64,000 nucleotides of DNA from an uncultured Alphaproteobacteria bacterium (GCA_949297415.1 CASFSV010000016.1:171-64170); one strand, 5' to 3'; numbered from the stretch's first letter, positions 8,693-39,486 are shown. Made by a program: numbers and translations. Notes: generated by a model from the letters alone, not told the origin.

Positions 8693-9673
8693 TTAAGTTA
8701 TTTCTGTTATACCACGAATGTTTCCGTCTCTTACAATTTGCACAACGTGAAGTTTGCGGCGCATTTCTTCTATTGTTTTTTCAACATCAATATTAGGCTG
8801 CGTTCTCATAATACGTTTTACAAAAGCTTCGTATGCCGCCGTTGAACTTTCTGCGTGGATTGTAGCCAGACAGTTATCGTGTCCGGAGCCCATCAACTCC
8901 CAAATTGCTCCGGCATTACTCGTTGAAATTTCTCCGCCGATAATTGCGTCTGGCGTAAAACGCACAATCAAGTCAATCACCTTTGAGTAATCCATCGTAT
9001 TGGTTTGTTCTGTACGTGACAGTACAATGTGTACTCTGTTGGGCTGTGGCACATTTAATTCTCGTGTATCCTCCACTGTAATAACACGTTTATGTATGTC
9101 TAATAGCTTTAAGAGGTTATTTAATAGTGTTGTTTTACCAGTACCGGTACCGCCACTTACTAATATATGATCACCGCGTCGCAATGCCAATAATAACCGT
9201 TCATAAGCATCATCCGGATCCTTAATATTTTTCAATGGATTTATTTCTTTTAGTTTTTTTCCTTGCTCTAATCCGTAGTCTCCGAATCCGAATGCGACAT
9301 CATCTGTATGTAAACGAATCGTTATGGCTATTCCTCCTGTTGCAGCATCATCTAAATCATATTCAATATTTTTTCCAGCAACCCCCGTAAAACGGTGCCC
9401 TCCTGGAATTCTGGCATAAACAACCGGTGATCCATTTATTGGATCAAATTCTTGATCATTTAAATTTGCAATGATGTGAAGCAGGTTTGTCAAATATTCT
9501 CTAGTTAGTTTCGGATCTTTATAATTTACCCAAGGGAATGCTCTTTTTCCACGCAGACGTAACCATATATCTCCCGGATGATTTATGGCTACTTCTTCTA
9601 TATTTTCTTGTTCATACCAGTATGATAAAGGTCTTAATACCGAGCTTAGAACTTCATCCTCTAGTTTTCCCAT
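8693..9673 (-). CDS. virB11: T4SS ATPase VirB11
   Basis: Walker A VSGGTGTGKTTLLNNLL, VITVEDTRELN, PDAIIGGEIS, His box GHDNCLATIHAES, 326 aa, last gene of the virB operon. Its stop lies 3 nt from the engB stop (convergent). Confidence 0.9.
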   Translation of the reverse strand: MGKLEDEVLSSVLRPLSYWYEQENIEEVAINHPGDIWLRLRGKRAFPWVNYKDPKLTREYLTNLLHIIANLNDQEFDPINGSPVVYARIPGGHRFTGVAGKNIEYDLDDAATGGIAITIRLHTDDVAFGFGDYGLEQGKKLKEINPLKNIKDPDDAYERLLLALRRGDHILVSGGTGTGKTTLLNNLLKLLDIHKRVITVEDTRELNVPQPNRVHIVLSRTEQTNTMDYSKVIDLIVRFTPDAIIGGEISTSNAGAIWELMGSGHDNCLATIHAESSTAAYEAFVKRIMRTQPNIDVEKTIEEMRRKLHVVQIVRDGNIRGITEIT

Positions 9674-9753
9674 TTATATACTCCCTTTTATTTGCTTCTT
9701 TTATTCTAGCAAATATTCACTATTTCGTCAATACAACGTCTAAATTATCTGTT

Positions 9754-12700
9754 TTAGAATAATTCGATGTCTCCTGAAACTTCTTCTTCACTTTCCGGTA
9801 CTTCCGTTACTGTTCCATCAGCTGCCGGTGGTGGGATTGCTCCTATATTTTTACGTGATTGTTGTTGATTATTTTGGTTAGTATTATCGCTAATTAAAGG
9901 TGTTCCTCCATTATTATTGGAATTATTTGCATTATTATTTTGTGATTGATTTCCTAAAATAACTTTTTGACTACCTTTAGAGTTATTTCCTTCTACGGTT
10001 GATGTTGAGGTTCCTTCACGTCCATCATAGAATCTTTCATTTACTAAACCACCTTCGCCACCGCCTGGTATCGCTGTTGCAACTCCTTTCTGAATATCTT
10101 TTGTACTCCTTAACCATAAATCTTGCATCGGATAAATTATAACTCGTGTTCCTGCCGGGACATACGTCACTGGCTCTATTTGTGATTTACTATCTATTAT
10201 CTCTTGCAAAATTTGATCCATCTTTTCCATAAACTGTTGACGAGCATCTGAAGCAGCCTGTTGCTTAGATGTTTCTACTTCTCCGGTGCTATCTTCATCG
10301 GCGGCCATCATATATGTTATCGCTGACGTTACCATTGTACCTACAATCGGCAATGTATACTTCTTTACTAACTGTTCATCAACATAACCTAGAGCACCAC
10401 CGCCACGTCCTTGTGCATCTCCTGTTTGAGTTCTGCCCGGTGATAACAAAAATGCAATTCCATCTGGACGAATAATTCTCTCCCATGATATTTCTAGCTT
10501 TACACCACCGCTTGTATTATCAAATCTAGCTTCCGCATCTGTCGTTTGTAATCCACCTATTATTCTACTACCGGCCGGAATAATAACATTTCTTCCAGAA
10601 TCTCCATAGATATTTCTTTCGACAATTGCTGTTACCGGTGCCGAACCTAATGATATCAATGAACGTGCTAAGACTGCCGGAATTGGTTTGTCTCCGGTAA
10701 TCATATTATCCATATTGACTCTTAATGTCGATACAGAGCGATTTAACCCCCAATCATCTTGCCAGCCAGTATAGGATGCAGCATCGTACCCTGGTTCTAT
10801 TTTGGCTGCGACCATTGTTCTCCTTCTTTCATCTTGAAGCTGAGATAATATTGCTGCTCGTCTCGGATTGTAACGCCCTCCGGGGCCTATGCCGCCTCCG
10901 GGGCCAACATTCGTTATTTCATTTCCACTGCTGTATGGATTTATGGTCGCTCCTGTTGCAATTTGCTTCCACCAATTTGCATTTACGCCTTTACGATCTG
11001 TTGTTCTTTGTTGTTCAAAATTACCAACTTTATTTCCTTCATTATCAAATATTTCTCCTTTTTCATTCGTACTACCCACTACTGTACCTGATTCATCTAT
11101 TACTTTGTTGTTACTGTATACATCTCCTATGTAACGTCCTCCAGGTGTCACTGCTATTCCAACAACTTGATAGTCTTCTTTTGTTTCTTGAGCTGCCAAT
11201 TCTTCTGGACTCAAAATATCCTCTATATCTTCTTGTTGTGCGTCATTGTCTTCTATTTCCATATCGGTATTATTAATTTCTTGTTTTTCATCTTCTTGAG
11301 GTGCTATTTCATCAATTACTTTTGTATCAGGAATTTCTTTTATAATTTCTTCTTCTTTGGGTTCTGACGGACGCTGATAATACTGCAACTTTCCGGCTTG
11401 ACCAAGTAATTCCCCTGAAGATGAAATAACCTTACCTTCTTCATCAATTTTGCCTATCTCTATATTTTTTATATTAACAACGCTTCCATCCAGATTAAGA
11501 TGACCGATTATTTGATTATTATTATCCCTTATCTCGTAGTCTCTTGCTCCTCTTCCTATCAAATTCTGTTTTTTATCCAAAACAAAACCATTATATATTG
11601 AACCTTTTATTTCTCCCATTACACTGTATACACGACCATTTTTAGCAATATACCCTATGGTTTTACCTTCATTGTCATATACATATAGATCGTATAGCGC
11701 ATATCCATTACCGCCTTTTTTAATTTTGACTTCACCTGTGTATAGAACTGTTCCTAAATTTTCACCAGAATCTGAAACAACATTTCCATCAGGCTTAACC
11801 CTTCCTAAGTATATATTATTTGAATCAAACGCTACAGTGTATTGAAACGGTACGCCTATGTTTTTTCCATCTTTTGCTAAAATACTTCCGTCTAAGTCTA
11901 TTGTCGCTATTTGTATGCCGGAAGAATCTACAACATTTCCGTAGAAATTTGTGTAGCCTATAATCTTATTATCAAACCCCATAACAGACATATATGGAAT
12001 TATTTGTCCTATAATTTCTTTTTGGGAGTTTCTTACTTTTCCACTAATGTCAACACAACCTAAATTCTGATTATCGTAATTTAGAACAGTTCCGGAAGTA
12101 TTGCTAACTCCGATTATATCTCCCCCCTTGCCATTTATAGCTTGAGGATACATAATATACCCAATTACATCTTCAGTTTCATTTACAACTTGATTGTTTG
12201 CTAGTATCATTCCTAGATATGCATCTTTTGATGTGCGAGCTTCTCCTCCATCCGATACAATACCTATTACCTTACATTCAGGTGAAATTATTGCTCCCAT
12301 ATTTAGAGCTTTTCCATATAAAGCGCCCATATTATCTAAAACATATCCATTTGAGCTTATCTTTCCTATTACTTCTGAACCTTTGGTTACCTGTCCTGTC
12401 AGACTATTTACTCCCAGATAATCACCATTAATACTTACACTAATTGGAGCATTATTTGACTGACCATAATTTTGTGTGAAGTTATCGGATAATCCTACGA
12501 CATTATTATTTGGCAATATCTTTGCAAAAACTTTATTTTGAGAATTAACGACCAAATTACCAGAATTTGCAGTACCTTGCATTTCTCCTTCAAAATTTGT
12601 TATGAATTTACTTTCTATCATTTTTCCTAGTAATTTGTTATTTTTATCCAGATAAATTCCGTTTCCTGTAAATTTTGCTATTTCATTTAATGAGGGATTT

Positions 12701-14109
12701 TCTGTTTTTCCTGCATTTGAAGTAAAAGATAATGTTGTTCCATCTTCTGTATAGATACCTCCTTGTTTGATGCTTATACCACTTAATTCTCCTTTTTCAT
12801 CAAACACATACCCGTACGGTGATATTTTATAAATTTGCCCATTTGCACTTAAACTTGTCCCTATTCCGCTAATTCCCAGAAATTCATTGTTATTATTAAA
12901 ACATAAATTACTTCCTAATGTTTTTCCTATTATATTACCGTTATTATCTACTGCATCACTTTGCTGTATTGTTCCTAAATCTACTCCTTCTAGGGATACT
13001 ACTTTACCGCCGATAGCAGCATTTGCTCGTAAATTTCCTAAGTAATCAAATATAGGTCCTTCCGGATTTATTATACCAATTACCTTTCCTTTTTCATCAA
13101 TAACTTTGCCTGATGCTCCAATTGTTCCTATTACATTTCTTTTACTTAATATCTTTCCCTCTGCCGTAATTCTTCCTAAATATTTCCCATCAAGTGTATT
13201 TGCTGTAGCTGCCATACTAACAGTAAAACCTATGGTGTTTCCTTCTTTATTAATTACTCGGTTTCCGTTTACGGCATGAGCAACCACAGTCCCTTTATTA
13301 ACAACTTCTCCATTATAGCTGACAACACCGATATATTGACCATTATTATTGAAAGCATAACCATTATCAACAATATGCCCTATCGCTACCTTTTCTTTAT
13401 TATATACGTATCCATTTGCATGAATATTTCCTATAACTTTTTTCTTTAAATCCATTACCTTTCCATCTGGAGCGATACTTCCCAAATATTTTCCGGCAGA
13501 TGATATTACCATTTTTGATGTAATCAGTTTTCCTGCTAAACTAATTTTATTTTCTGTTCCTGTTGTATAAGAATATACATAACCACTTGCCGTAACATAT
13601 CCTGTATTTTCTCCTGAAAGATTATAGAACTTGCCATCACCAGATACTCGGCCTATTACTTGACCAACGTCATTATATACTAAATTTGGAGATATAGAAG
13701 CTCCTAATATATCGTAGTTGTCATTTACAATCAGCCCATTGGGCAGAGCTTTTCCTACTAAATTATCATTTACAGAAGTCACTGATCCATCATTGTTAAC
13801 TTTACCCAGTATGCTGTTATTATATGATATAGCAATTCCCTGAGGAACAACTCCTCCGATTAGATTGTTTTCATTATCATACGCAAAACCATCTGCTGTT
13901 ATGTATCCTATTAATTCGTTATCACTGTTTATTACTGAACCGTCCGGTATTACTTTTCCAATTAAATCACCGTTAAAATTAAGTGCGCTTATATCTGCTG
14001 CCATTGCTTTTACGCTCATGGCAACACATAAAAAAGCTAATTCTAATATCTTACTTAATTTTATTATGTTTTTATGCAAATCAATTCCTCCGGTTTTGCG
14101 TAACTTCAT
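9754..14109 (-). CDS. virB10: Giant VirB10-family protein: signal-peptide-like N-terminus, about 860 aa of short G-x-V-x-D-x-x-G-x-x-IG repeats, acidic linker, VirB10/TrbI barrel, N/Q-rich acidic tail
   Basis: Barrel motifs TLRVNMDNMITGDKPIPAVLARSLIS, NVIIPAGSRIIGGLQ, ISWERIIRPDGIAF, GALGYVDEQLVKKY, VPAGTRVIIYPMQDL (about 10110-10740). N-terminus ILELAFLCVAMSVKAMA/AD. Repeats such as GDLIGKVIPDGSVINSDNELIGYITADGFAYDNENNLIGG. Lies between the 2093-aa ORF and virB11. Confidence 0.85.
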   Translation of the reverse strand: MKLRKTGGIDLHKNIIKLSKILELAFLCVAMSVKAMAADISALNFNGDLIGKVIPDGSVINSDNELIGYITADGFAYDNENNLIGGVVPQGIAISYNNSILGKVNNDGSVTSVNDNLVGKALPNGLIVNDNYDILGASISPNLVYNDVGQVIGRVSGDGKFYNLSGENTGYVTASGYVYSYTTGTENKISLAGKLITSKMVISSAGKYLGSIAPDGKVMDLKKKVIGNIHANGYVYNKEKVAIGHIVDNGYAFNNNGQYIGVVSYNGEVVNKGTVVAHAVNGNRVINKEGNTIGFTVSMAATANTLDGKYLGRITAEGKILSKRNVIGTIGASGKVIDEKGKVIGIINPEGPIFDYLGNLRANAAIGGKVVSLEGVDLGTIQQSDAVDNNGNIIGKTLGSNLCFNNNNEFLGISGIGTSLSANGQIYKISPYGYVFDEKGELSGISIKQGGIYTEDGTTLSFTSNAGKTENPSLNEIAKFTGNGIYLDKNNKLLGKMIESKFITNFEGEMQGTANSGNLVVNSQNKVFAKILPNNNVVGLSDNFTQNYGQSNNAPISVSINGDYLGVNSLTGQVTKGSEVIGKISSNGYVLDNMGALYGKALNMGAIISPECKVIGIVSDGGEARTSKDAYLGMILANNQVVNETEDVIGYIMYPQAINGKGGDIIGVSNTSGTVLNYDNQNLGCVDISGKVRNSQKEIIGQIIPYMSVMGFDNKIIGYTNFYGNVVDSSGIQIATIDLDGSILAKDGKNIGVPFQYTVAFDSNNIYLGRVKPDGNVVSDSGENLGTVLYTGEVKIKKGGNGYALYDLYVYDNEGKTIGYIAKNGRVYSVMGEIKGSIYNGFVLDKKQNLIGRGARDYEIRDNNNQIIGHLNLDGSVVNIKNIEIGKIDEEGKVISSSGELLGQAGKLQYYQRPSEPKEEEIIKEIPDTKVIDEIAPQEDEKQEINNTDMEIEDNDAQQEDIEDILSPEELAAQETKEDYQVVGIAVTPGGRYIGDVYSNNKVIDESGTVVGSTNEKGEIFDNEGNKVGNFEQQRTTDRKGVNANWWKQIATGATINPYSSGNEITNVGPGGGIGPGGRYNPRRAAILSQLQDERRRTMVAAKIEPGYDAASYTGWQDDWGLNRSVSTLRVNMDNMITGDKPIPAVLARSLISLGSAPVTAIVERNIYGDSGRNVIIPAGSRIIGGLQTTDAEARFDNTSGGVKLEISWERIIRPDGIAFLLSPGRTQTGDAQGRGGGALGYVDEQLVKKYTLPIVGTMVTSAITYMMAADEDSTGEVETSKQQAASDARQQFMEKMDQILQEIIDSKSQIEPVTYVPAGTRVIIYPMQDLWLRSTKDIQKGVATAIPGGGEGGLVNERFYDGREGTSTSTVEGNNSKGSQKVILGNQSQNNNANNSNNNGGTPLISDNTNQNNQQQSRKNIGAIPPPAADGTVTEVPESEEEVSGDIELF
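10110..10740 (-). other. VirB10/TrbI C-terminal barrel domain within the 1451-aa ORF (approximate bounds)
   Basis: Checked by reverse-translating DNA: PGYDAASYTGWQDDWGLN at about 10741-10795 lies just before the domain, and YPMQDLWL at about 10110-10140 ends it. Confidence 0.7.
11397..13977 (-). repeat. Coding array of short Gly/Asp/Ile-rich repeats in the VirB10-family ORF
   Basis: Residues about 45-905 are almost entirely 10-13-aa units such as GxVxDxxGxxIG. They end just before QRPSEPKEEE, confirmed at about 11365-11385. Confidence 0.75.
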
Positions 14110-17100
14110 CTAATACATATCCGGAAACTTGATTTCGGATATTTATATATGAGCCATTACTTTTCAAATATCCGATTTTTCCATTTGTCAGACTATATAT
14201 TGTTCCGTCGGGTGATAGTCTTCCCAAAAACTTTCCGTCGTTACCCAGTATATTAGCACCTATTTTATAACTATGTCCCAATATTTTTCCATTGTTATCT
14301 ACAACTAAATTTGACGAGATAATTTTCCCAATCACTGTTTTGTCCTGATTTAATATCTTGCCTTCTGCATTTACAAATCCTACAACTTTATCGTCTTTAT
14401 TTATTACTATATCATCTTCTACGATTTCTCCTATTAAATATCCTTTGTTGTCGACTGCCTGTCCTGAATTTAATATATGACCAATCTTGATGTTTTCTGT
14501 GGAAATTACACTACCATCAGCTACAACTTGACCTATTATCTTGCCTGAATAATTTAGAACAATTCCTCTCTTAAGTACACTGTAATTTTTATTTGATGTG
14601 CCTCCCGGTAGAATTGTCGTTACTATATTATCCTCATCATCAATAATATCACCAAGCGCATTTAAATATCCTCTTATCTTACCTTGTATATCTATTATAA
14701 AATCTTCTTTAATTACTTCGCCTATTATTTGTTTATTTTCATCTAAGACGTGACCTTCTGAACCAACACTTCCACTAATGTTACCGTCTACATCTATTAC
14801 CTTGCCACTTTTGCTAACATATCCTAAATATGAACCATCATAGCCAATGCCAACACCTGTTTTTACCAAACCTCCTTTGTATTCTCCTTGTTTATCAAAC
14901 ATTCTTCCTTTGCCATCAATGTGCCCTAATTCCGTACCCAAAACATCAATAACTTTGCCGGCATTATTTACAAAACCAATATAATTTCCATTGAAGTCAA
15001 CAACAGTTCCTGTTTCTATTATTTTTCCAGCCTTTTGAGAATAGAAAGAATTACCTTCATATACAAATTTATCAACTGCTATGCCTTTCTGATTATACAC
15101 ATAGCCATCCGCAAATAGGTGTCCTATTGTTTTTCCATTTGCATCTACCACAATATTTTTCTCTGGTAGCAATATCCCTTTCACTTCCAGTTTAGGATTT
15201 ACAAGATATTTATTAAATAAAATCTTTGTATTTGGAATTATATCCTTACTGTCATATCTAAAGTTTGATAAATTATCTATAAAATCTCCTTTTATTCCAT
15301 AAGCTTGGCTCTTATCCATAACTTGTCCGATTATAAAACCGTCTTTGTTTAAAATTTCCCCTTCTAAATTTGCACATCCAATCGCTTGTGAACCATTTTT
15401 TACTGTTCCATCCTGATTAAGCAATCCCATCATTTCACCACTATAGTATAATGCATACCCAGGCTCATATACCTTACCTATTAGCTTTCCATCTTGATTT
15501 AATACACCTCCGTCAGGATTTACACAACCAACATATCCTCCGTCATTATTACGAACAAATCCATCATATTCTGCTTTTCCGATAATATTACATCTTTCAT
15601 CTCTAACAGAACCAACTTTGGCTATGTCCCCAACATAATTGCCTTCATTGTCGACGATTGTGCGGTCAAAGATCATTCGATACTCTGTTTCTTTTCCGTC
15701 TTTTTTTACTTTTGCATCTCTATCTACATACCCTAAATTTTGGCATCCCCACCCAACTGCCATTCCACCAATAACAGTTTTCCCAATTATTTTCTCTCCT
15801 TCAACAGATTTTATCAGCGAATTTGGTAAAATTTTACCTATAATTTCTTCTTTGTTATTAATAACTTCTCCTTTGTTATTAATAATTCCTAAGCTATATC
15901 CATTAGGGGATATGGCTATCATATCTTTTTTAACAACTGTTCCTATCCTTACTCCATGCGAACTGATAACATTGCCGTTTTCATCTATATAACCGATGAC
16001 TAGTCCTCTTGCATTATAAACCTTTCCATCTTCCCCTATATAACCAATTACATTACCTTCCTCATCTACCGCCAAATTGGAATAATCTCCTACCTGTCCG
16101 ATGATTTTACCATTTTCATCTACTGTAAAATCAATATTTCCGCCTACTCGACCGACTATATTCCCCTTATCGTCTTTTATGCTTCCATCTTCTTGAACCT
16201 TACCCAGTATGTTCCCATTTAAATCTCTAGCTATTCCATTTTCATCAATGTAGCCTATCACATTCCCTGCTTCATCTAGCACAGATTTGCGTGAAATAAC
16301 TTTTAAATTTCCATCCCCTTGTTCGGCTAATCTTCCTATAATTTCACCATCGCTACCATAAACATTCCCGTCTTCCGCAACAAAACCGATGACCTTACCG
16401 TTATTACCAATGACTCTCCCTTTGTCATCAACATAACCGATAACATTTCCATCTTTGTCTAATACGACCTTTGCTAAATCTCCAGCTTTTCCTATTATAT
16501 TACCATTTATATCATTTATACTGCCATCTTCTCCAAGATATCCTAGCAATTTACCCTCAAAATCTCGCACAGTACCATCTTCATCAACATAACCGATAAC
16601 ATTTCCATCTTTATCATAGGCTAATTGGCGATTTATATCTGCTTTCCCTAGTACTTCTCCTGACACACCTATAATATTACCATCTTCATCCATAAAGCCT
16701 ATAAGTTCGCCGTTTTTACCGTATACTTTACCATCTTCTCCTACATAACCTATAACATTACCGTCTTTATCCAAAGCCAAAGTTTTCGTATCTCCAACTT
16801 TGCCTATTTCTCGACCGTATGCATCTATTATTCGTCCATCTTCGGTAGCTTTGCCTATCAAATTACCTTCAAAATCGTATACATTTCCATCTTCATCAAC
16901 ATAACCGATGACATTACCATCTTTATCATAAGCTACTCTTCCATTTTTCCCTACACTACCTATTACCTCATTTGTATTCTTTAGTATATTACCATTTTCA
17001 TCTACATAACCTATAACATTACCTTTGAAATCTTTAACACTGCCATCTTTATCAACAAAACCGATAACTTTACCATCTTTATCATAGGCAAGATTTTTAG

Positions 17101-29688: not shown

Positions 29689-31046
29689 TGGTAGTCTCCC
29701 GCATTTACTTCATAAGAATCTTCAACATCTGTTACTGCACTATTTGCAGTATTGGCCTCTTCTATTGCTTTATCAACATCTTCTTTTGTCAGTATGTATT
29801 TTTCTAAATTATACTCTAAATATGCTCCGTTTGGCACCTTGATTGCCTCTACGCTTAATAATTTCTTGGCTGCCATATATTGTAATCTTGCACTTTGTAA
29901 TTTTGCGTACATCAATAATGCTTTCATACTTTCTATTCTTGTTGCTGAGTATGACGATATTGCTTCCAATTCTCCCGTTGATGCCGGCGTATTTTGGAAC
30001 ATTTCATCTATAATCTCACTTCTCACAGGTATCTCTCGTCTTAGTGTAGCCGAAACCTGTAATAAATGTGCAGCACTGTTCACTAATAAGAAGCGACGTT
30101 CTCTTGTTACGGCATCTATTTTGGTTTGGTGTTCAATACGTGCATCCGCGCCAGCTGACGATAAATCTTTAGGATTATAAAAATATCTGTCTATAAAATC
30201 TTTATAATCTTCCTCAGTCGGAGAGAAGTTGTCTACTATATCTTCGTCATCCCACTCGGTTTCATCTCCTCCTGATTTATTCATTATTTCTTCTGCTCCA
30301 CCGTCGCCATCTGCTTCTTCTATTTCATTATCCATCTCTTCTAGGCGCTTTTCATATAAGGCATATTCCGGATCCTCTGACGTACCTACTTTTGCTTTTT
30401 CTTCTTCAAGTGCTCCTTTCTGAGCTTCTAAATCACTTAGCAATTCTTCTAATTCTTTGCAGACTGTTTCTAGTTCTTTATATTCCATTTCTGCTTTCAT
30501 GTAGTCATCAAGAGCCTTTGGTTCTTCTGCCAGATTTCCTTTTACACTCTCATAGTAACTCTTCTTTTGTTCTACCTCTACTGATTTTTGTGTCTTCTCA
30601 CTTAATTTTTGGGTGTATACCGTTTCTGTTTCTTGTATACTTTCCTCCATTATTGCTATTTTTTCATCATAGTAGGCATTTTTAGTTTCAGTTTGCGCCT
30701 CTTTTTCTGCTTCTATTTTATCTCTATTTTTCTTCTTTGTACCATCAACTATTTTTTTCATCTTTACTTTAAGTAAATTCTTACCATAGCTTGTTGCATA
30801 TTCTTCCGCAATACCAAATAGCTCTTCTTTATTAAAACCTTGTGAACTCATTTGTTTTACTTGTGAGACTTGTTGAGTAATCTTGGTTGTAGCATCCGTG
30901 ATTTTCCCTACCCATTCACTTATCTTGGCTGCCAATGTCGGAAAGTCCAAAATCAATGCTTGGGCATTTTGTGGTGCGCTCGCGGTTAATATTGTAACTA
31001 TGCAGATGATTGCTATTTTCTTCTTCATTTCTCTTCTCCTATTCAT
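29670..31046 (-). CDS. Secreted acidic coiled-coil protein, VirB5/TrbJ-like N-terminus (probable start 31028)
   Basis: Signal peptide MKKKIAIICIVTILTASAPQNAQA, then LILDFPTLAAKISEWVGKITDATTKITQQVSQVKQM. AGGAGA precedes the second Met (31028). E/K-rich coiled coil and acidic stretch. Confidence 0.55.
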   Translation of the reverse strand: MNRRREMKKKIAIICIVTILTASAPQNAQALILDFPTLAAKISEWVGKITDATTKITQQVSQVKQMSSQGFNKEELFGIAEEYATSYGKNLLKVKMKKIVDGTKKKNRDKIEAEKEAQTETKNAYYDEKIAIMEESIQETETVYTQKLSEKTQKSVEVEQKKSYYESVKGNLAEEPKALDDYMKAEMEYKELETVCKELEELLSDLEAQKGALEEEKAKVGTSEDPEYALYEKRLEEMDNEIEEADGDGGAEEIMNKSGGDETEWDDEDIVDNFSPTEEDYKDFIDRYFYNPKDLSSAGADARIEHQTKIDAVTRERRFLLVNSAAHLLQVSATLRREIPVRSEIIDEMFQNTPASTGELEAISSYSATRIESMKALLMYAKLQSARLQYMAAKKLLSVEAIKVPNGAYLEYNLEKYILTKEDVDKAIEEANTANSAVTDVEDSYEVNAGDYQWLENN

Positions 31047-31737
31047 CTGCTTTACGTGTTTGTAGAGTTAATTCAGCCGTTGCTCCAGCACTCGTCATGT
31101 AAGCCTTCATCTCTAATATTCTATTTAGTCTTTGTTCTGTTGCTATGGCGACGATGTTTTGAGCATTCAAAATCTCATCCATGTTTTCATTCTTAAATTC
31201 TGCTTGATATAATGAACCATCTTCTACCAAAATACTCTGGCGTGCAGATACTCCTTTAGCAAATAATAATGCTGTATCATCTGCTACTATTGCATTTATA
31301 TATCGGCGGTTTTCTGTGGTCTTATCTATATCTTCTCCTTGTCCCCTTTGGTAGATATATGTATTTTCAACAGTTTGAGCTAGACTTCCATCGCTTTTCT
31401 TTTTCAAATCCCCCTCTTTTAATTCCTCTGCTCCCGGCATAACCTTTATTTCAGTTAGACTAGTTACATAATTCTCAGAATCTTTGGCAAATGCCTCTAT
31501 TGCTTTTGCATCACACTTTTTGGGATTTTTATAGCAGTTACTTGCAAGATCAAACCCTTGTCTGGCTCTTTTTTCTATATCTCTCATTTTCTTTTGAAGC
31601 TCTTGAGCTTTGTTTTCTATGTCTTTATATAATTCAAGTATTGATTCTACTTTTGCCATAATATCAAATATTGCATAGGCCTCTCTTGTGTATGCAATTA
31701 ATGAGAAAAACAGAAGTATACATAGTTTCTTTCTCAT
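31039..31737 (-). CDS. virB5: VirB5/TrbJ-sized (232 aa) secreted helical protein
   Basis: Signal peptide MRKKLCILLFFSLIAYTREAYA, then IFDIMAKVESILELYKDIENKAQELQKKMRDIEKRARQGF. Its size and position after virB4 match VirB5/TrbJ. The start overlaps the upstream stop (TAATG). Confidence 0.55.
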   Translation of the reverse strand: MRKKLCILLFFSLIAYTREAYAIFDIMAKVESILELYKDIENKAQELQKKMRDIEKRARQGFDLASNCYKNPKKCDAKAIEAFAKDSENYVTSLTEIKVMPGAEELKEGDLKKKSDGSLAQTVENTYIYQRGQGEDIDKTTENRRYINAIVADDTALLFAKGVSARQSILVEDGSLYQAEFKNENMDEILNAQNIVAIATEQRLNRILEMKAYMTSAGATAELTLQTRKADE

Positions 31738-33932
31738 TAGCTCTCTCCCTCAGCTTTTTGCCCGAAGTAATTATAGTTAAATGTTTCCAAATCTTTTAAT
31801 ATCTCAGTCTGCTGATTTTGGGCATCCGCATCTACAATACTGAGTATTTGTTGTGTTGTATAATAATTGATTTGAGCACCTATGGAATAATCATCTTTTG
31901 TTGTCGTACTTTCTTTTAATCCATCTTGAAGACTTACTATGTTTTTATCTTCACTTGGATTTGGTAATTTCTCTGGATCAATATAATCTAAGCTTGATTT
32001 GTAGTTATTTATGACTGCTAATGTTAAATTATTAAATGCCGAATCATTGTATGCTTTTCTTTGTCTTTCCTTTCCTGCCTTTTTTTCCATTTCTTTATCA
32101 TCTCCTGTTCCTATACTGGCTTCTAAGGCATATTTATATAGGCAATCTGCTATATTTTTTTCTTTTTCTGTAATTGCTTCTATGTCCGTTTTTTTCTTTT
32201 CTGATACAGAAATATCTTTAGCTCTTAAACCACATTTATATAATATCACGTTAGAAAAAATGGCTTTATCAATTACTGCCTTACTTTCATCTCCATCTCT
32301 GTCATCTGATTGCATCGTTCCCCAATTTCTGTTTGTTGCTTCAACAAAATCTGAATCCCTTCCATCTAAATATAATGTTACTCCTTTTTCAAAATCTTGT
32401 ATCATACTTTTGGCTCTTTTTAACGCATCTATTCTCCGTATCTCACTCCATAACTTTGGGGACTCTATATCTGTCATCCCCATTAGTTGATATCCGGCTC
32501 GTGTATTATCTACATCTTTCAGTGTTTTTCTTAAAACATATAATGTTCCTTTGTTGCTATCATTATCCGGCTCTAAATTTCCCCATGTTGCTGAAAATTG
32601 TTTTGCTTTACTCACACTTACAATATTTGCGATGCTATAGTCTTCTCTTAAATGTTTATATATTCCATCTTTTTGGTAATCTTTATATAAGGCTTCCTCA
32701 TATATTTTAGGATATAAATCTACCTCTGCTTTTGCTTTTACAACACATTCTCTTAATGTGCTTGGATCTTTTTCAATTTCTGCAACATCTAAGCCATTAC
32801 ACACTAATTCTGCAGGTAATAAAAAACTTTTATCTGCATCGGTAGCATATACTCCTTTTAAAAGCTGTCTTTCTTGATTTGAACTATAGTTAAATACATA
32901 TAACTTTTTTATTGTTGTTACGTTACTTGCCTCCTCACTTCCATCTGAATACCCTTTTGAATTACTTATACTATTCATGATATCTTCGCTAAAGGCATCT
33001 ATTTTATCTGCAATCTTTTGCGCATCCGCAGCAATGCCGTTTATTGTATTTGTATCTATTCCTACATCTAATCCGGCTATAGTTTCTTTAAATGTTTCTC
33101 CTGCTTGGGTTAATCCTGCTCGATCTATATTACCTGCATAATAGTCACTAATGGCTTGACTATACTCATCAAATGCTGCAGCTATTTGCTCATTATATAA
33201 AGAATCAAACTCTTCTTTTACAGAGTTAATTATACTTGTTACATTTGTTTTTAACTCTTCAATATCATTTTTTATATCGTTAGCTTCTTCATTTAATCTC
33301 GTCTTATCCTCATCGCTTAAATCGCCATTTTCATTTAAACTATCCATGAGCATATCAATTGCAGTTTGTGCATTATCCATAGACTCTTCTATTGCAGCTT
33401 CGGCTTCATTTAAAGCCTTATCTACTTCTTCTTTATTTGCATTTGTTTCATTTTCTGCTTCATCTAATGTATTCTGTACCTCTTCCTCATTTGCTCCAGA
33501 ATCTACTTGGCTTTCGATAGTTTCTGTTGTATTTTCAGCATTCTCTTTTTCTTTATTTAATTCTTCGTTTAGTGTTTCATCGACATTTGTTGCTATATCG
33601 TCAAGATTTTCTGTTGTTTCTGTAATGTTATTGGTTATTTTGGTCACATTATCTTTGATATTGGCTATTGTTCCTTTTAAATCTGCTGCATATTTTCTAA
33701 TTGACGAAACTTGATCCCCTATCGTCTTTATTGTATTATTTATATTATCTAATTGACTTTTAGCATTGGATATTTGGTTTAACCCCGTTGTAATACTATT
33801 TACAAAAGAAACTATTTCCGTTAAATCTATTACTGGCCATATAAAAGCTTTTGCCGGGCGCACATTTAATGTTAGACAAAGACAGCCTATCATTGCCACT
33901 TTTATAAAATTGGATACTATCCTTTTTATCAT
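31737..33932 (-). CDS. Secreted 731-aa protein with VirB5/TrbJ-like N-terminus, N/E/D/T-rich coiled coil and C-terminal globular region
   Basis: Signal peptide ...LTLNVRPAKA, then FIWPVIDLTEIVSFVNSITTGLNQISNAKSQLDNINNTIKTIGDQV. SD AGGGAGGG upstream. Confidence 0.55.
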   Translation of the reverse strand: MIKRIVSNFIKVAMIGCLCLTLNVRPAKAFIWPVIDLTEIVSFVNSITTGLNQISNAKSQLDNINNTIKTIGDQVSSIRKYAADLKGTIANIKDNVTKITNNITETTENLDDIATNVDETLNEELNKEKENAENTTETIESQVDSGANEEEVQNTLDEAENETNANKEEVDKALNEAEAAIEESMDNAQTAIDMLMDSLNENGDLSDEDKTRLNEEANDIKNDIEELKTNVTSIINSVKEEFDSLYNEQIAAAFDEYSQAISDYYAGNIDRAGLTQAGETFKETIAGLDVGIDTNTINGIAADAQKIADKIDAFSEDIMNSISNSKGYSDGSEEASNVTTIKKLYVFNYSSNQERQLLKGVYATDADKSFLLPAELVCNGLDVAEIEKDPSTLRECVVKAKAEVDLYPKIYEEALYKDYQKDGIYKHLREDYSIANIVSVSKAKQFSATWGNLEPDNDSNKGTLYVLRKTLKDVDNTRAGYQLMGMTDIESPKLWSEIRRIDALKRAKSMIQDFEKGVTLYLDGRDSDFVEATNRNWGTMQSDDRDGDESKAVIDKAIFSNVILYKCGLRAKDISVSEKKKTDIEAITEKEKNIADCLYKYALEASIGTGDDKEMEKKAGKERQRKAYNDSAFNNLTLAVINNYKSSLDYIDPEKLPNPSEDKNIVSLQDGLKESTTTKDDYSIGAQINYYTTQQILSIVDADAQNQQTEILKDLETFNYNYFGQKAEGES

Positions 33933-33993: not shown

Positions 33994-35187
33994 TTAATTC
34001 TTTATCTTTTTTTTCACGTTTATTTCCGCTACTATTGCTTTTAGATCATTTTTGATGTCCTCTGTTGCCTTACGTTGTTGCTCTAGTGTTTTTTTATCTA
34101 TACTTGTATCTATCTCCGCAAATGCAACCTTTAATTCTTCTCCCTTTTTGAGAACTTCATCTTTACTTGTATCTCCTCTAAAGTAGCTTTCTATTGTCTT
34201 TTTGTAATTACTTATTCCATCTATTAGTTTGTTTTGGCATTCTATATTATAGCTCTCTTTTGCATTCTCTATAAGTGCTATTGTTTTATCTGACATGTTT
34301 TGACACTTTATTCTCAAAGATGCTACTTTTTGAACTAAATCTTCCTTATCTTTATCTTCTAGTTGCTCGGTTGTTTTAATCGATTTTTCTAACCTATCTA
34401 ATATTTTGTTTGTACTTTGAGAAGATTTGTTCAAAGTGCTTATCGCTGTATCTAAAACATCATTCATTTGAGCTATGACTTGTTTGCTATCCTCTTCAAA
34501 CGCCTCTATATTTCCCAGAATTTCTTCTTGTTGTATGAGCATTGCTTCATTCTCAGCGATTTCTTCTTCCTCCTCCTCCTCTTCTACCGGTTCAGTAGCA
34601 GTCTCTTGCTTTTCGGCTTCCTCTTGTTCCTTTTTCTTTTTTTCCTCTTCTCTTTTTGCCTTCTCAGCCTCATTCTTTGCATTTACTTTTTGCATACCTT
34701 CATCGGCTTTTTTGGCTGTCTCTTGTGCATCATCTATTCCTGAACTACCTTTATCTATATAGTCTTCGCCTTGATTTATAATATTTTGTGTATCATTTAT
34801 TATATCATTAAGCTCTCCGCCTAATGCATCATTCGTTGCATCAAGCCCTTTATTTACATCTTCCGGAATTTCCATATCTGTTCCTAAATTTTCATTAAGA
34901 CCGTCTACGGCACTGTTTGCAACATCTTGTATATTTGATACTGTATTTCTTAAATCTTGGCCAAATTGTGCAATATTATCTATACTCTGCCCCATAGCCT
35001 GAAAAGCATTTTTCATTTCTGTCATTTGTGCCTTTGTTTCTGATAAAGCACTCATAGAAGTACTTACATTTGAGATAATTTCAGGTACTTCTCCAAAATC
35101 CATTACTGGCCAAAATGCTTTTGCAGGTTGATTGGTGACTATGGCACCGCTTAAAACTATAATACTTAAAATCTTAGCTTTTACCAT
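33994..35187 (-). CDS. Secreted coiled-coil protein with VirB5/TrbJ-like N-terminus (ORF-track start 35217; 35187 preferred)
   Basis: MVKAKILSIIVLSGAIVTNQPAKA, then FWPVMDFGEVPEIISNVSTSMSALSETKAQMTEMKNAFQAMGQ. A strong SD GAGGGGGA precedes the Met at 35187. Contains poly-Glu EPVEEEEEEEEIAE. Confidence 0.6.
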   Translation of the reverse strand: MVKAKILSIIVLSGAIVTNQPAKAFWPVMDFGEVPEIISNVSTSMSALSETKAQMTEMKNAFQAMGQSIDNIAQFGQDLRNTVSNIQDVANSAVDGLNENLGTDMEIPEDVNKGLDATNDALGGELNDIINDTQNIINQGEDYIDKGSSGIDDAQETAKKADEGMQKVNAKNEAEKAKREEEKKKKEQEEAEKQETATEPVEEEEEEEEIAENEAMLIQQEEILGNIEAFEEDSKQVIAQMNDVLDTAISTLNKSSQSTNKILDRLEKSIKTTEQLEDKDKEDLVQKVASLRIKCQNMSDKTIALIENAKESYNIECQNKLIDGISNYKKTIESYFRGDTSKDEVLKKGEELKVAFAEIDTSIDKKTLEQQRKATEDIKNDLKAIVAEINVKKKIKN

Positions 35188-35265
35188 AATTCCCCCTCTT
35201 AAATAAATAATATTCAACGTTGTAAATTGTACTACATTTTTTTGTTTTTGTCAACAAATTTATAG

Positions 35266-37713
35266 TTAAACCCCATTGAGATATTTTGTTACGAATCCAT
35301 CTTCTCCAAATTCTTTTACAAGGCTTTCAACAAGCAATACATTTTTAATACCAGAATTGTATAATTTCAGATATGGTCCTAATCCACTCAAGTTTACATC
35401 AAGAATTACAGACTCTCCTTCCCCGTTCTCTCCGGCATCCGGACGTTTTAATAATATAGCATACGGGCAATCTCTGTAGGATTTACCACTAATGAAATCA
35501 TATTCGCTGTCCGTTAAATTCCATTTTGCATATGATTCTGGTGTTGCTTGGGTGTTGCGGAAGAATATCATTGTCTTACATTGACCTCTTACCGCATCGC
35601 CAACACCTAATGAATCTACAATGTTTGGCTGTTGAAACGCACAAAGATAGGCCTGGCGTTTTTTACGACCTTCTTGCAACCCTTTGATGAAGTTATCCCT
35701 AAACATTTCATGTTTTAACATCGGCGCCGTTTCATCAATCATAATCAGTGCAGGACTACCTGTTTCTGTACTCTCTGATTGTATTCTGTGCATAATGTAG
35801 CTAATTGATGCTGCGGCAAGTACATCATCGTCAAAAATCTCTGTAAAGTCAAATGCCACAAATCTATTTGAACTCAAATCCAAACTATCGTGCTCTGCAT
35901 TAAAGATATTTCCGTATTGGTCAGGGTTTACCCATCTATATAATTCACGGCGCATTGTTCCCGTTGGTGAAAAGCAACTTTTGTACAAATTCTTCAAAAC
36001 TCTCTCTTCTGGACGCAGATAATCAAATGCCGTCGTTACTGCTCGAGCTGCTTCTCTTTCCGATAACGCATCTTTTGCCATAGTAATCGCTTTTAACCAG
36101 TTACGTAAAAACGCTCTATTGCTCATCGTATCTCGTGAATCGAACGGATTTAATGATACATTTTTTCTATCACCGCTAAAGCCAACATATGCACCCTGAA
36201 CCATGTGAGTAAATATTTCTGCACCGCGGTGTCTATCAAAAAAGTATACTTTCAAATCACCGTGCCGCATAGCTTGACCGGCTAAAAACGTCAGCAATGT
36301 TGTTTTACCTTGTCCGGTCGGTCCTACAATACAACAGTGCGCAACCGCTGATTCCGCCGCTGATATATGAAATTGGAATCTATATGGAGAGCCACTCATT
36401 GTCCTAAATACCGTAATAGCACCTTCACCCCAGTCACTTCGTGGCAAACCTGTCGATAGTTGCTCAAATGAAACAGCTAATGAAACTATCCTTGATAAAT
36501 AGAAATACGTTCTTCCACAAGTATCATATCCCGGAAATTGATTGAAAAATGTCGCTTGTGCTATCCAATTTTCTCGTACCGGCGTTACACTGAACAAACG
36601 ACATATTCTTTGAACTTCACTTTCACCAAATTCTATTTCTTTAATCGAATCTCCTTTTAATATAAAACTCATGGAATATTCTACTAAAGACTGGTGATCC
36701 GCATCGCTTTCTTCGATTGCGGCCAAAGCTTCGCTATATTGCGCCACTACATCTGACGAAAAACTGGTTACTTCTGCCATTTTTTGTTGTTGCACCAAAA
36801 TCATTCGTGCTTTAGGCTTAAATAAGGGATGAATATGATGAAGAACCGTTAATTCGCAATCTATTGCCAATAATGATGATATCATTCCTTCATCCATATA
36901 ATCCCCTGAATTGCGTATTCCCATTGTCAGGGCAAATTTTTCTTTCCCTCCCGAAAAGAATTTTATTATACCTTCTTCTCCCGTAAAATGAATACCGTCA
37001 GAGCTCAGCATTTCTTTTAATTGGAACCCTTGCGCCCCTCTAACTTTGGGCAATGGTTTACTTATTGGATTTAAAATTCTTACAAACGGATATACCGGAC
37101 TCATTTCTGCTGAGCTCTCATCATCCTCGTACAAAACTTTTATTCCGTAATCATTCAAATTAGCCATTACCGATTGTGACGCAAAGTTCAAATCTTTTAC
37201 CGCATCTTTTCTATCTTCTATTGATAAAATAATGTAGTGGTCATTTTTATAAACACGACTTAAATTTTCTCGCCATGTGTCATCTACTATTTTAAGCCAT
37301 TTATTTCCAAAATCCGCTTTATTTTTCTCCATCGGAACGCGGTCACGTATTGTTATCACTCGGCATGTTACTTGCAAATCCGCCATATTATCGAGCCAAG
37401 ATTTTCTGGCTTCAAACATTGATAATACCGTTTCATCTCGCGCCGATGTTAAATCAACACCCTCAACTTTAAATACGCGTACATATGTGCCATTACTGCA
37501 TCTTAGCGTTGAACCATCCGATAATAAACTATCAAACGGCAAAAAATCCGCAACCCTTGATTCACTCGGTTGTGGCAATACCCATGTCCCTATCTTTGAA
37601 ACTAATGAAATTGCTATGGCTGCTGCGGATATAATACCTAAGGTTGCAACAATCGCGTCTGCGCTTTGCAAACCAGCCATAAATAACGTATAAAAATCAA
37701 AATCAAGGTTCAA
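35266..37713 (-). CDS. virB4: T4SS ATPase VirB4
   Basis: 815 aa. Walker A IVGPTGQGKTTLLTFLAGQ, Walker B ALIMIDETAPML, AFQQPNIV. Overlaps the virB3 stop by 11 nt. Confidence 0.93.
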   Translation of the reverse strand: MNLDFDFYTLFMAGLQSADAIVATLGIISAAAIAISLVSKIGTWVLPQPSESRVADFLPFDSLLSDGSTLRCSNGTYVRVFKVEGVDLTSARDETVLSMFEARKSWLDNMADLQVTCRVITIRDRVPMEKNKADFGNKWLKIVDDTWRENLSRVYKNDHYIILSIEDRKDAVKDLNFASQSVMANLNDYGIKVLYEDDESSAEMSPVYPFVRILNPISKPLPKVRGAQGFQLKEMLSSDGIHFTGEEGIIKFFSGGKEKFALTMGIRNSGDYMDEGMISSLLAIDCELTVLHHIHPLFKPKARMILVQQQKMAEVTSFSSDVVAQYSEALAAIEESDADHQSLVEYSMSFILKGDSIKEIEFGESEVQRICRLFSVTPVRENWIAQATFFNQFPGYDTCGRTYFYLSRIVSLAVSFEQLSTGLPRSDWGEGAITVFRTMSGSPYRFQFHISAAESAVAHCCIVGPTGQGKTTLLTFLAGQAMRHGDLKVYFFDRHRGAEIFTHMVQGAYVGFSGDRKNVSLNPFDSRDTMSNRAFLRNWLKAITMAKDALSEREAARAVTTAFDYLRPEERVLKNLYKSCFSPTGTMRRELYRWVNPDQYGNIFNAEHDSLDLSSNRFVAFDFTEIFDDDVLAAASISYIMHRIQSESTETGSPALIMIDETAPMLKHEMFRDNFIKGLQEGRKKRQAYLCAFQQPNIVDSLGVGDAVRGQCKTMIFFRNTQATPESYAKWNLTDSEYDFISGKSYRDCPYAILLKRPDAGENGEGESVILDVNLSGLGPYLKLYNSGIKNVLLVESLVKEFGEDGFVTKYLNGV

Positions 37714-37993
37714 ATTTATGCCCTTTCACTTTATATAAATTTTGCGGCACCATATTTGTTTGCCCAAAGGCCTGTATCATTCCTGATAAGTGAGGATCTT
37801 TTGCTCCAAGCGCAACAACGATTAAATGCCCCAACACAATACTTATAATAAACACAAGCGGGTTTACGTCGCCCATTCCGATAGCCATAAACATGAAAGG
37901 TATTTGCAAACCTGCATTCAGCGCGGTCGGCAAAACTGGTCCCCAAAATAATTTGGGCGGATTTGCTACTGCTTTTAGTATTATATCTTTCAT
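37703..37993 (-). CDS. virB3: VirB3-family small inner-membrane protein
   Basis: 96 aa. LFWGPVLPTALNAGLQIPFMFMAIGM plus a second TM NPLVFIISIVLGHLIVVAL. Lies immediately upstream of virB4. Confidence 0.8.
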   Translation of the reverse strand: MKDIILKAVANPPKLFWGPVLPTALNAGLQIPFMFMAIGMGDVNPLVFIISIVLGHLIVVALGAKDPHLSGMIQAFGQTNMVPQNLYKVKGHKFEP

Positions 37994-38071: not shown

Positions 38072-38428
38072 CTAACTTCCGAGGCTACTATGCGATACCG
38101 TATTCATATATGTATCGCTAAATTCTGTTTTTAAATTTGCATGACTTCCTGTAAAATAATCAATTATCGCACCTGTCGCTGAAAGCATAAACAAACTGAT
38201 AAAAATATATCCTAAATGCTTAAAATTAATCTTTCCGCTTATAGCTAAAAAGGTAAACATTACAATACCAAAGCAAGATATTGCATAAGCAAAAACTCGT
38301 AGCTGAGATGCGAATGATACTGTTTTTTTCTTTAATGCGTCAAAGACATTCTCTGCCATCGCATCATTGCTTACCAGCAAAACTAGTGCCACACATATTA
38401 TAAAGAGAAATATATTTCTTTTTGTCAT
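38072..38428 (-). CDS. virB2: VirB2-like pilin paralog 3
   Basis: 118 aa. Signal peptide ...LLVSNDAMA and two hydrophobic helices (AYAISCFGIVMFTFLAISG; LGYIFISLFMLSATGAIIDYF). SD AGGAGAA. Lies upstream of virB3. Confidence 0.65.
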   Translation of the reverse strand: MTKRNIFLFIICVALVLLVSNDAMAENVFDALKKKTVSFASQLRVFAYAISCFGIVMFTFLAISGKINFKHLGYIFISLFMLSATGAIIDYFTGSHANLKTEFSDTYMNTVSHSSLGS

Positions 38429-38439: not shown

Positions 38440-38760
38440 CTATGTTCCTAAGGCTATGTCACTTGCTATATCCGATGCACCATTTGGGGCAAACATAGCT
38501 ATAAATCCCGCGCACAAGCTTATTACCACTAACCCTAATATAATTGCTGTTAGCCACTTCCAGTTTATGTTTCCGAAAAAACCGCCAATACATACCGCAA
38601 TTATACCAACAGCAGATGCCGGATAAATAATTTCTCGTAATCCTGAAAATATCTCATTTCCTGACGTTATTAAAGAGTCAAATGCTCCAGCTTGTGCAAC
38701 TGAAGGTATTAGTAAGCTCAGCATTACCAATGCGTAGAAAATTTTATTATCTCTTTGCAT
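38440..38760 (-). CDS. virB2: VirB2-like pilin paralog 2
   Basis: 106 aa. Signal peptide ...LLIPSVAQA and two hydrophobic helices (ASAVGIIAVCIGGFFG; LTAIILGLVVISLCAGFIAMF). SD GGGGAGA. Confidence 0.65.
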   Translation of the reverse strand: MQRDNKIFYALVMLSLLIPSVAQAGAFDSLITSGNEIFSGLREIIYPASAVGIIAVCIGGFFGNINWKWLTAIILGLVVISLCAGFIAMFAPNGASDIASDIALGT

Positions 38761-38786
38761 CTCAAAATCTCCCCTATACTGTTTGT

Positions 38787-38795: not shown

Positions 38796-38871
38796 CAAAT
38801 CTATACAAATAGCTAGTAAAAAATTTGCTTCTTACATTATTCCATCATTCTGTTTTTACTTATTTTATTTA

Positions 38872-38893: not shown

Positions 38894-38967
38894 GTGTCCG
38901 TTTTTCTATTACATCTTTCTATATATTAAAGCTTCCATTTTATTTTTATTAAATCAGATCTTAGCAA

Positions 38968-39000
38968 CAAAAAAGGAGCGCATCACGCGCTCCTTTTTCT
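38968..39000 (-). terminator. Rho-independent terminator after virB2 paralog 1 (bidirectional shape)
   Basis: GC-rich stem GGAGCGC (38975-38981) / GCGCTCC (38987-38993), a 5-nt loop, and A/T runs on both sides (aaaaaGGAGCGCatcacGCGCTCCttttt). It stands out in AT-rich sequence, 22 nt after the stop at 39015. Confidence 0.75.
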
Positions 39001-39014
39001 TTATTTTTTGGTTA

Positions 39015-39368
39015 TTATAGACCGTTACCAGATTCACTAAATGTATCACCTGTTTGGCCTGAAGTAATATTACCACCTGTAGCGTAGTTAACAATCGCAC
39101 CAGCTGCTGCCAAAATTGCCAAACCAACAGCCAAGCCTGCAAACCAAGTCCATTTTACTTTTCCAAAAATAGCTTGGAACGCAATACCAATTAAACCAAA
39201 TGCACCAACTACGAAAATAATGGTCTTAATATGAACAAAAAGCTGTAATGCTTTTTTCATACCTGTTTCCATAACGCTTTCATTTGCTGCATATGATGCA
39301 TTTGCAAGTAATATTGTAAACACAAGAGCTAAAGAGCAGAGTGTAAACACTTTCTTTAAGTTTTTCAT
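39015..39368 (-). CDS. virB2: VirB2-like pilin paralog 1, apparently monocistronic (ORF-track start 39395; 39368 preferred)
   Basis: MKNLKKVFTLCSLALVFTILLANASYA signal peptide and two hydrophobic helices (IFVVGAFGLIGIAFQAIFG; FAGLAVGLAILAAAGAIVNY). SD AGGAGAA lies 5 nt before the ATG at 39368. TATAAT (39387-39392, minus) lies just upstream, and a terminator lies downstream. Confidence 0.7.
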   Translation of the reverse strand: MKNLKKVFTLCSLALVFTILLANASYAANESVMETGMKKALQLFVHIKTIIFVVGAFGLIGIAFQAIFGKVKWTWFAGLAVGLAILAAAGAIVNYATGGNITSGQTGDTFSESGNGL

Positions 39369-39486
39369 ATCAGTTCTCCTAAATTCATTATACATTGTTT
39401 ATATTACAGTAAATTTAAAAAAATTTCAAGCCTTTTGACTCGTCTCACTTTCATCTTAACATATTGTATTTGTTTGTTTTTTTATT

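Follow-up and report, generated by a model that had tools for sequence, protein, structure and literature searches.

A candidate two-operon VirB-type secretion system beside the dnaA region of uncultured gut Alphaproteobacteria

We analysed a stretch of 64,000 nucleotides (the window) from an uncultured Alphaproteobacteria bacterium (GCA_949297415.1 CASFSV010000016.1:171-64170), which carries a large operon for a VirB-type (P-type, MPF_T-like) type IV secretion system (T4SS). The stretch is part of scaffold_362 (73.7 kb) in ENA assembly ERZ16268258. On the minus strand, from position 39395 down to 8693, 18 consecutive genes follow each other with short gaps or overlaps. In the 5' to 3' direction their order is three copies of virB2, a virB3-like gene, virB4, five open reading frames (ORFs) for secreted proteins (X1 to X5), virB8, a lipoprotein gene, a second virB8, virB9, a giant ORF composed of repeats, virB10 and virB11 (Table 1). 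The remaining minus-strand ORFs of at least 60 amino acids (aa) in this span are four in number, and all are nested in alternative frames. The operon contains no gene for VirB6; in sister lineages, candidate VirB6 proteins are encoded in a separate, second operon.

The operon starts with the pilin genes. VirB2a, the probable major pilin, has a signal segment followed by two hydrophobic helices, and VirB2b and VirB2c are alike in topology. The cut-off of the Pfam family TrbC is 27.9 bits, which places VirB2a and VirB2b above it and VirB2c below it. Directly behind the stop codon of virB2a a scan for terminator-like structures revealed a hairpin rich in guanine and cytosine (GC), which may act as an attenuator that raises the expression of virB2a above that of the rest of the operon. 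Sister lineages carry the third VirB2 paralogue as part of a larger protein, 916-934 aa in length, that has a long extension at its N-terminus (positions 6720-9524 of locus L030 and 6674-9424 of locus L028). The 96-aa ORF that overlaps the start of virB4 is 58-99% conserved among relatives. It has no match in Pfam and none in the PDB, also when a profile was used for the search, and its topology and position make it a putative virB3. The virB4 product matches TIGR00929 (E 8e-113) with 378 bits, which is below the cut-off of 643, and its top PDB match is TrwK (E 3.5e-47, 164 bits).

Five ORFs for secreted proteins follow virB4. Each of X1 to X5 has an N-terminal signal-like segment and no further hydrophobic helix. 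X1 and X2 are clear paralogues (BLASTP E 1e-22), and the other X proteins are weakly alike; the orthologues of X5 in the sister lineages measure 1200-1600 aa. Profile searches with X1 to X5 against Pfam, NCBIfam and the PDB gave no match to VirB5, and a profile built from the X3 family retrieved nothing relevant from the PDB or Pfam. The AlphaFold model of X3 is all-helical at a predicted local distance difference test score (pLDDT) of 51, and a Foldseek comparison of this low-confidence model returned generic helical bundles only, which is uninformative.

Downstream of X5 lie the genes for the core complex. The canonical VirB8 (copy b) has the VirB8 of Bartonella/Brucella as its PDB match (E 4e-6); for the divergent copy a no significant PDB match was obtained. 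The 62-aa lipoprotein encoded between the two, 54-79% conserved in the sister lineages, is a putative VirB7 on account of its size, lipobox and position. VirB9 ends in a SPOR (peptidoglycan-binding) domain (residues 577-649), with a score of 21.3 bits at a cut-off of 21. The 2093-aa protein consists almost entirely of ~25-aa repeats of the type YDKDGNVIGYVDEDG, and the first ~900 residues of VirB10 are made up of repeats like these (Bflower_2, E 7.6e-50). Taken over the region 9754-20362, dozens of such beta-flower/RHS-like repeats of ~25 aa are encoded. Faint matches to RHS_repeat were also seen in a VirB6 paralogue of one distant lineage (locus L328, 3865-6495). The PDB match of the VirB11 ATPase is the VirB11 of Brucella (E 2e-23). 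In every lineage examined virB11 is the last gene of the operon; it abuts yihA, or in relatives the o220 gene.

Table 1. Features of the VirB-type operon and the adjoining pilus cluster, in window coordinates
Feature	Coordinates	Strand	Length	Basis or remark
virB2 paralogue a, probable major pilin	39015..39395	-	126 aa	Pfam TrbC E 1.4e-10, 41.7 bits
GC-rich hairpin, perfect 12-bp stem	38970..38998	-		terminator-like scan; directly 3' of virB2a stop
virB2 paralogue b	38440..38760	-	106 aa	Pfam TrbC E 5.1e-8, 33.5 bits
virB2 paralogue c	38072..38428	-	118 aa	Pfam TrbC E 3.3e-5, 24.5 bits
virB3-like	37703..37993	-	96 aa	two adjacent hydrophobic helices; overlaps virB4 start
virB4 ATPase	35266..37713	-	815 aa	Pfam CagE_TrbE_VirB (PF03135) E 1.1e-10
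X1, Sec-signal helical	33994..35217	-	407 aa	hydropathy; VirB5 position
X2, Sec-signal helical	31737..33932	-	731 aa	hydropathy
X3, Sec-signal helical	31039..31737	-	232 aa	hydropathy; VirB5-sized
X4, Sec-signal helical	29670..31046	-	458 aa	hydropathy
X5, Sec-signal	24214..29688	-	1824 aa	hydropathy; usual virB6 position, not polytopic
virB8 copy a, divergent	23435..24193	-	252 aa	Pfam VirB8 E 2.5e-12
VirB7-like lipoprotein	23104..23292	-	62 aa	lipobox LILAAC
virB8 copy b, canonical	22334..23092	-	252 aa	Pfam VirB8 E 1.9e-19
virB9	20359..22314	-	651 aa	Pfam CagX E 9.4e-15
Giant bitopic repeat protein	14081..20362	-	2093 aa	one N-terminal transmembrane helix; Pfam Bflower_2 E 1.7e-139, 24 stretches
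virB10	9754..14109	-	1451 aa	Pfam TrbI E 8.8e-28, residues 1137-1333
virB11 ATPase, last gene	8693..9673	-	326 aa	TIGR02788 E 5.2e-47; Pfam T2SSE
Type IVb pilus cluster (TcpQ-like, PilN secretin, PilO, ATPase, platform protein, bundlin-like pilin)	39662..50136	+		Pfam/NCBIfam

Hydropathy was scanned over the window in all six frames, and no polytopic candidate for VirB6 emerged in the 64 kb: the polytopic matches were limited to YidC, the GspF-like platform protein of the pilus cluster, ATP synthase subunit a, the three pilins and antisense ORFs. Neither was a polytopic ORF present in the 10 kb on the far side of dnaA. When the remaining window ORFs were scanned with Pfam and NCBIfam, no member of the TrbL/VirB6, type IV coupling protein (T4CP), SLT or relaxase families was detected. 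X5 and the 2093-aa ORF were considered as a hidden VirB6 and rejected, each having a single N-terminal hydrophobic segment. A preliminary description of the region had given the gene order listed above, had accounted for every coding-strand ORF of at least 60 aa, and had reported that VirB6, VirD4, VirB1 and a relaxase are missing from the window. The ORF map, the domain searches and the hydropathy scan bear this out, with the four nested ORFs as the only extras. It had also allowed for a divergent VirB6 among the listed ORFs, and none was found.

A different picture emerges when the sister lineages are considered. Their VirB4 is ~70% identical, the order of the operon is the same, and again no polytopic ORF is found inside it. 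Beyond virB11 these lineages possess a second operon, usually convergent to virB11, with genes for four polytopic proteins in tandem, which are 435-1334 aa long and have 6-8 hydrophobic helices each. The 45 GTDB loci with full flanks contain four such paralogues in 39 cases and three in 3 cases. The second operon lies at most 10 kb from virB11 in 42/45 GTDB loci and in 17/23 metagenome loci. It is unlinked in 3/45 and 6/23, respectively, which indicates that splitting from the main operon recurs.

Several observations connect the polytopic proteins to VirB6. Six of them match the Pfam family TrbL/VirB6 with E-values of 2e-5 to 8e-5, at scores (23-25 bits) just under the cut-off of 25.9 bits, and a precomputed match to PF04610 is attached to many database homologues. 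A profile of the VirB6 paralogues found no match by sequence; only the comparison of folds gave one. The AlphaFold model of the ~445-aa paralogue (pLDDT 76.7) was compared with the PDB by Foldseek, and each of the seven highest-ranking matches was a TrwI/VirB6 chain from the R388 stalk complex (probability 1.0, best E 2e-4). The family is large, with 1208 representatives at E <=0.001 and ~40 full-length lineages of the paralogue used for the search. VirB6 is therefore probably present in the system as a whole, in several copies and in a separate operon. A Peptidase_M23 domain is found on the largest paralogue, joined in some lineages by VgrG3-like_C, and these peptidoglycan hydrolase domains could stand in for VirB1.

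Behind the VirB6 paralogues come a 323-aa regulator of the XRE type, whose identity between lineages is 78-100%, and then four genes. The genes that always accompany the paralogues (positions 10993-16594 of locus L094, with orthologues in L100 to L194) encode this regulator, an acidic protein of ~680 aa, a 179-aa protein bearing the motif YYDRTISRIAARCVR, a lipoprotein of 422 aa and a bitopic protein of 220 aa. The regulator and its four companions have no Pfam match; all five may belong to the machine as additional parts.

The system is conserved over a wide group of organisms. Homologues of VirB4 number in the hundreds, and all derive from metagenome-assembled genomes (MAGs) of uncultured gut or rumen bacteria labelled 'Alphaproteobacteria bacterium', including 'CAG:495' and 'Candidatus Scatocola'. 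The arrangement of the whole operon recurs in at least 58 GTDB species, and the divergent type IVb pilus cluster is present in 45/45 of the related loci that extend far enough. Selection was assessed by the ratio of nonsynonymous to synonymous change (pN/pS) relative to the nearest species, at synonymous sites that are near saturation (pS 0.4-0.65). VirB4 (0.02), VirB3 (0.01) and VirB11 (0.003) are constrained as strongly as the reference dnaN (0.027) or more so, which argues that the machine is in use. Higher ratios were obtained for the pilins (0.14-0.18), X1 (0.28), X2 and X4 (0.14-0.16) and VirB10 (0.12); the exposed parts of the machine diversify.

In the genus of the window the DNA has been rearranged behind virB11, so that the block from yihA to dnaA now adjoins the 3' end of this gene, and the VirB6 operon is consequently expected elsewhere in the genome. 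The junction between virB11 and yihA is the breakpoint relative to the sister lineages, and the order virB11 / yihA-yidC-rnpA...dnaA is fixed across the genus (VirB4 82-99% identical). VirB6 is universal in relatives, its operon splits off recurrently, and VirB3, VirB4 and VirB11 are under strong constraint; we therefore consider it very likely that VirB6 is encoded elsewhere in the genome of the window's species. The headline of the preliminary description, namely the lack of VirB6, is then most likely an effect of the window, since the sister lineages keep four tandem paralogues. A part that is missing from one window is not necessarily missing from the system.

For the coupling protein the outcome is different. 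No VirD4-like ORF emerged from a Walker-A screen of the first ~195 related loci, and among the gene calls of later related loci there is neither a coupling protein nor a relaxase near either operon. The preliminary description had left two options, namely components located elsewhere in the genome, after the manner of the rvh system of the Rickettsiales, or a repurposed machine. For VirB6, which has its second operon in the sister lineages, the first option is strongly favoured; for VirD4 and the relaxase the absence from the window extends to the related loci. The lack of both near either operon, the fixed chromosomal position and the vertical inheritance argue against conjugation. An ordinary conjugative system that has been split, or the remnant of an integrative conjugative element, with VirB6, VirD4 and the relaxase encoded elsewhere, would fit the location of VirB6 apart from the main operon in relatives, and type IVb pili do accompany conjugative T4SSs in R64 and PAPI-1. 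We nevertheless hold this explanation to be highly improbable: the operon keeps its position next to the dnaA region throughout the genus and is conserved in the 58 or more species mentioned above, the motor genes are as constrained as dnaN, no relaxase or T4CP was found in any related locus, and the sole recombinase nearby is of the XerC/D type and lies among housekeeping genes.

The pilus cluster next door also raises the possibility of a system for uptake or release of DNA, of the type of ComB or the gonococcal genetic island (GGI). ComB is not known to have a VirB11, three pilins, five secreted proteins or giant repeat proteins, and the scans of the window ORFs with Pfam and NCBIfam uncovered no DNA-processing genes linked to the operon. 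ComB does share the absence of VirD4 (PMC12857230), and a type IV pilus cluster is indeed adjacent, but a function of this kind seems hardly likely.

The layout of the operon recalls the rvh system. The order virB8-virB7-virB8-virB9-virB10-virB11 is that of rvh islet C, to which the window adds the giant ORF between virB9 and virB10; virB3-virB4 form a unit in both; and both combine a canonical with a degenerate VirB8 (PMC2653234). The distribution of components over more than one locus and the chromosomal, vertically inherited location in Alphaproteobacteria are further shared traits, and the large tandem VirB6 paralogues, seen here in the sister lineages only, would be another (PMC2653234). 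The likeness described here is one of layout. Differences are numerous as well. In rvh, virB4 and virB9 are duplicated, whereas single copies are found in the window. The three VirB2 proteins, VirB3 and VirB4 here share an operon with VirB8 to VirB11, and five secreted helical proteins are encoded where rvh, which is without VirB5, has its VirB6 genes. The giant repeat protein, the repeat-bearing VirB10 and the adjacent type IVb pilus cluster likewise set the present system apart, and its host belongs to a gut-associated uncultured lineage and not to the obligate intracellular Rickettsiales.

These similarities could mean that the machine is an rvh-like effector translocator, with VirD4 at a third locus and cytoplasmic effectors delivered into host, protist or bacterial cells. 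Besides the matching gene orders, the tandem large VirB6 proteins and the scattered loci (PMC2653234), the extreme constraint on VirB11 would agree with such a role, and so would the long extra domains of the VirB6 paralogues, which are reported for the Anaplasmataceae as well. The virD4 gene of rvh directly follows virB11 (PMC2653234), whereas virB11 comes last in all lineages examined here, and no T4CP-like ORF is located near either operon in the related loci. In addition, the best PDB matches are proteins of R388, Bartonella and Brucella. We therefore regard an rvh-like translocator as possible, but rather unlikely.

Other well-known systems show partial likeness, too. The Cag system of Helicobacter pylori resembles the present one in that its VirB10 homologue is enlarged by a long internal repeat array (CagY) and in its extra large components; for the machine described here, the repeat-enlarged VirB10 and the extra large components suggest an expanded outer complex. 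CagY is a VirB10 homologue with long repeats, and Cag has a T4CP (Cag-beta). The repeats in the window are Bflower/RHS-like and not of the CagY type, and Cag-specific proteins were not detected. The Trw system of Bartonella is chromosomal, has no coupling protein at its locus, and includes several variable pilin genes as well as several genes at the position of VirB5. Trw amplifies trwL and units of trwJ-trwI-trwH, and it keeps VirB6 (TrwI) inside the operon. It is close to R388, whereas VirB4 of the window reaches just 164 bits versus TrwK. The X proteins have no detectable similarity to VirB5, and the pilins are triplicated in the operon without co-amplification of VirB6 and VirB7.

The VirB system of Brucella and Ptl of Bordetella have a single VirB2 and a VirB6 in the operon, no giant repeat proteins and no linked type IVb pilus, in which they differ from the present system; the likeness lies in a VirB-type machine without VirD4 at the locus, combined here with the Sec signals of X1 to X5. 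Both export Sec-dependent periplasmic substrates in two steps and do so without VirD4 (PMC12857230). For Trw an adhesion role has been proposed, in which it is thought to display variable pili, and the T4CP-less systems treated in the same review are Ptl, Brucella VirB, ComB and Trw (PMC12857230). Literature searches, including one for RF32 Alphaproteobacteria combined with T4SS, retrieved no description of the system reported here.

On balance, we consider it moderately likely that this DNA encodes the larger part of an enlarged VirB-type T4SS, as the main one of two operons, and that the system is inherited vertically and serves cell contact and not conjugation. In such a machine VirB3, VirB4, VirB8, VirB11 and VirB6 would form the inner-membrane complex and the base of the stalk. 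VirB7, VirB9 (anchored to the peptidoglycan by its SPOR domain), the CagY-like VirB10 and the giant repeat protein would make up an enlarged outer complex, and the pilus would be built from the three pilin paralogues. X1 to X5 would be subunits of the tip or adhesins, or alternatively periplasmic substrates with a two-step release. The machine and the neighbouring type IVb pilus would jointly mediate contact with another cell, without conjugation. The preliminary description had asked whether this is an adhesion or effector machine rather than a conjugation system. Its non-conjugative part is supported, as neither VirD4 nor a relaxase was found at the loci. Adhesion or pilus display is made plausible by the fast-evolving pilins and secreted ORFs, and it is not the sole option, because the T4CP-less Brucella VirB and Ptl secrete proteins (PMC12857230).

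Several points weigh against this interpretation. The VirB6 operon was not located in any genome of the window's genus. The profile scans of genome and metagenome contigs covered the best 80 loci each. Within that scope, the scan of genome contigs with a VirB6 alignment gave, among the matches listed, sister lineages only, and the best 80 of 325 relatives in a scan for the linked helix-turn-helix regulator included none from the genus. A protein search with a VirB6 paralogue, followed by inspection of the context of nine matches, identified no MAG, sample or contig in common with the genus. Contig ends did not overlap, and locus tags, GC content, tetranucleotide frequency, amino-acid composition and coverage provided no link between lineages. 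The scores of the paralogues for TrbL fall just short of the cut-off, as described above. VirD4 could be encoded elsewhere in the genome, and if it is present the function would shift towards effector translocation. The label 'B5-like' for X1 to X5 is a provisional one derived from position, signal peptide and predicted helices, and a pilus, a target cell and a substrate are predictions.

The first of these points is what a strict repurposing would predict, i.e. that the genus has lost both VirB6 and VirD4 and employs an adhesion or pilus-display organelle without a VirB6 platform. Trw itself retains TrwI, which counts against such a loss. Furthermore, VirB6 paralogues are kept in every sister lineage examined, and purifying selection within the genus is very strong on VirB3, VirB4 and VirB11, the partners of VirB6. 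The absence of a polytopic ORF from the 64 kb and from the 10 kb beyond dnaA, the lack of a VirB6 operon assigned to the genus among the best-scoring loci, the three pilins and the five fast-evolving secreted proteins would all be in agreement with it, but the failure to find the operon rests on those best-scoring loci rather than on a genome-wide scan. Trw does offer a precedent for adhesion without a T4CP, and at the same time every studied VirB-type machine has a VirB6 homologue at the base of the stalk (e.g. R388 and Dot/Icm; PMC12857230). We consider strict repurposing improbable. In a more specific form, the genus would have lost the VirB6 operon, would have no coupling protein, and would use the five helical proteins exported by Sec as the foundation of a stalk or pilus. 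One possible reading of the numbers is in line with this, since the VirB5/VirB6 stalk is pentameric and there are five X paralogues, but this form is decidedly improbable. If an apparatus without VirB6 did turn out to be real, it would be the first of the VirB type known to work without the VirB6 platform.

The preferred reading, that of a two-operon machine for cell contact, bears on a clade that is widespread in gut metagenomes of humans, rodents, chickens and ruminants. Among the records retrieved it has no cultured member and no described biology. Its most conserved large block of genes is the secretion machine together with the type IVb pilus. The motor is constrained like replication genes and the exposed parts diversify, a pattern that suggests a lifestyle centred on contact with another cell (host, protist or bacterium); for this common gut lineage the machine is probably an organelle of key importance. 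An rvh-like layout outside the Rickettsiales, with virB8-virB7-virB8, multiple VirB6 and split loci, could show how rvh arose. Two traits appear to be new for VirB-type machines in the papers searched, namely the fusion of VirB6 paralogues to peptidoglycan hydrolases and a VirB10 with beta-flower repeats.

The chromosomal housekeeping context near dnaA that had been noted before was confirmed on both sides of the operon, which is flanked by the dnaA block and by the atp operon. Beyond virB11 follow yihA, yidC, rnpA, gpsA, recF, dnaN and dnaA, the last of which is cut by the start of the window (positions 1-1341; the gene call in the database measures 486 aa). The 10 kb upstream of dnaA contain recG, mfd, fpg and rpsT. 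virB11 and yihA are convergent, their stop codons being separated by 3 bp (8689-8693), and no terminator-like structure was detected at this junction.

On the other side lies the type IVb pilus cluster, which is divergent to virB2a and includes a GspF-like platform protein. Downstream of it come a gene for a PilT-like ATPase on the other strand (region to 51097) and then the atp F0 genes. The cluster (39662-51097) looks complete; a gene for a prepilin peptidase was not observed in the window. In other samples, every sibling contig stops ~160 bp past trx, just beyond the right end of the window, and this shared end suggests that a repeat is located there, e.g. an rRNA operon. The contigs with the VirB6 operon of other lineages (L303, L304) also begin at a fixed point.

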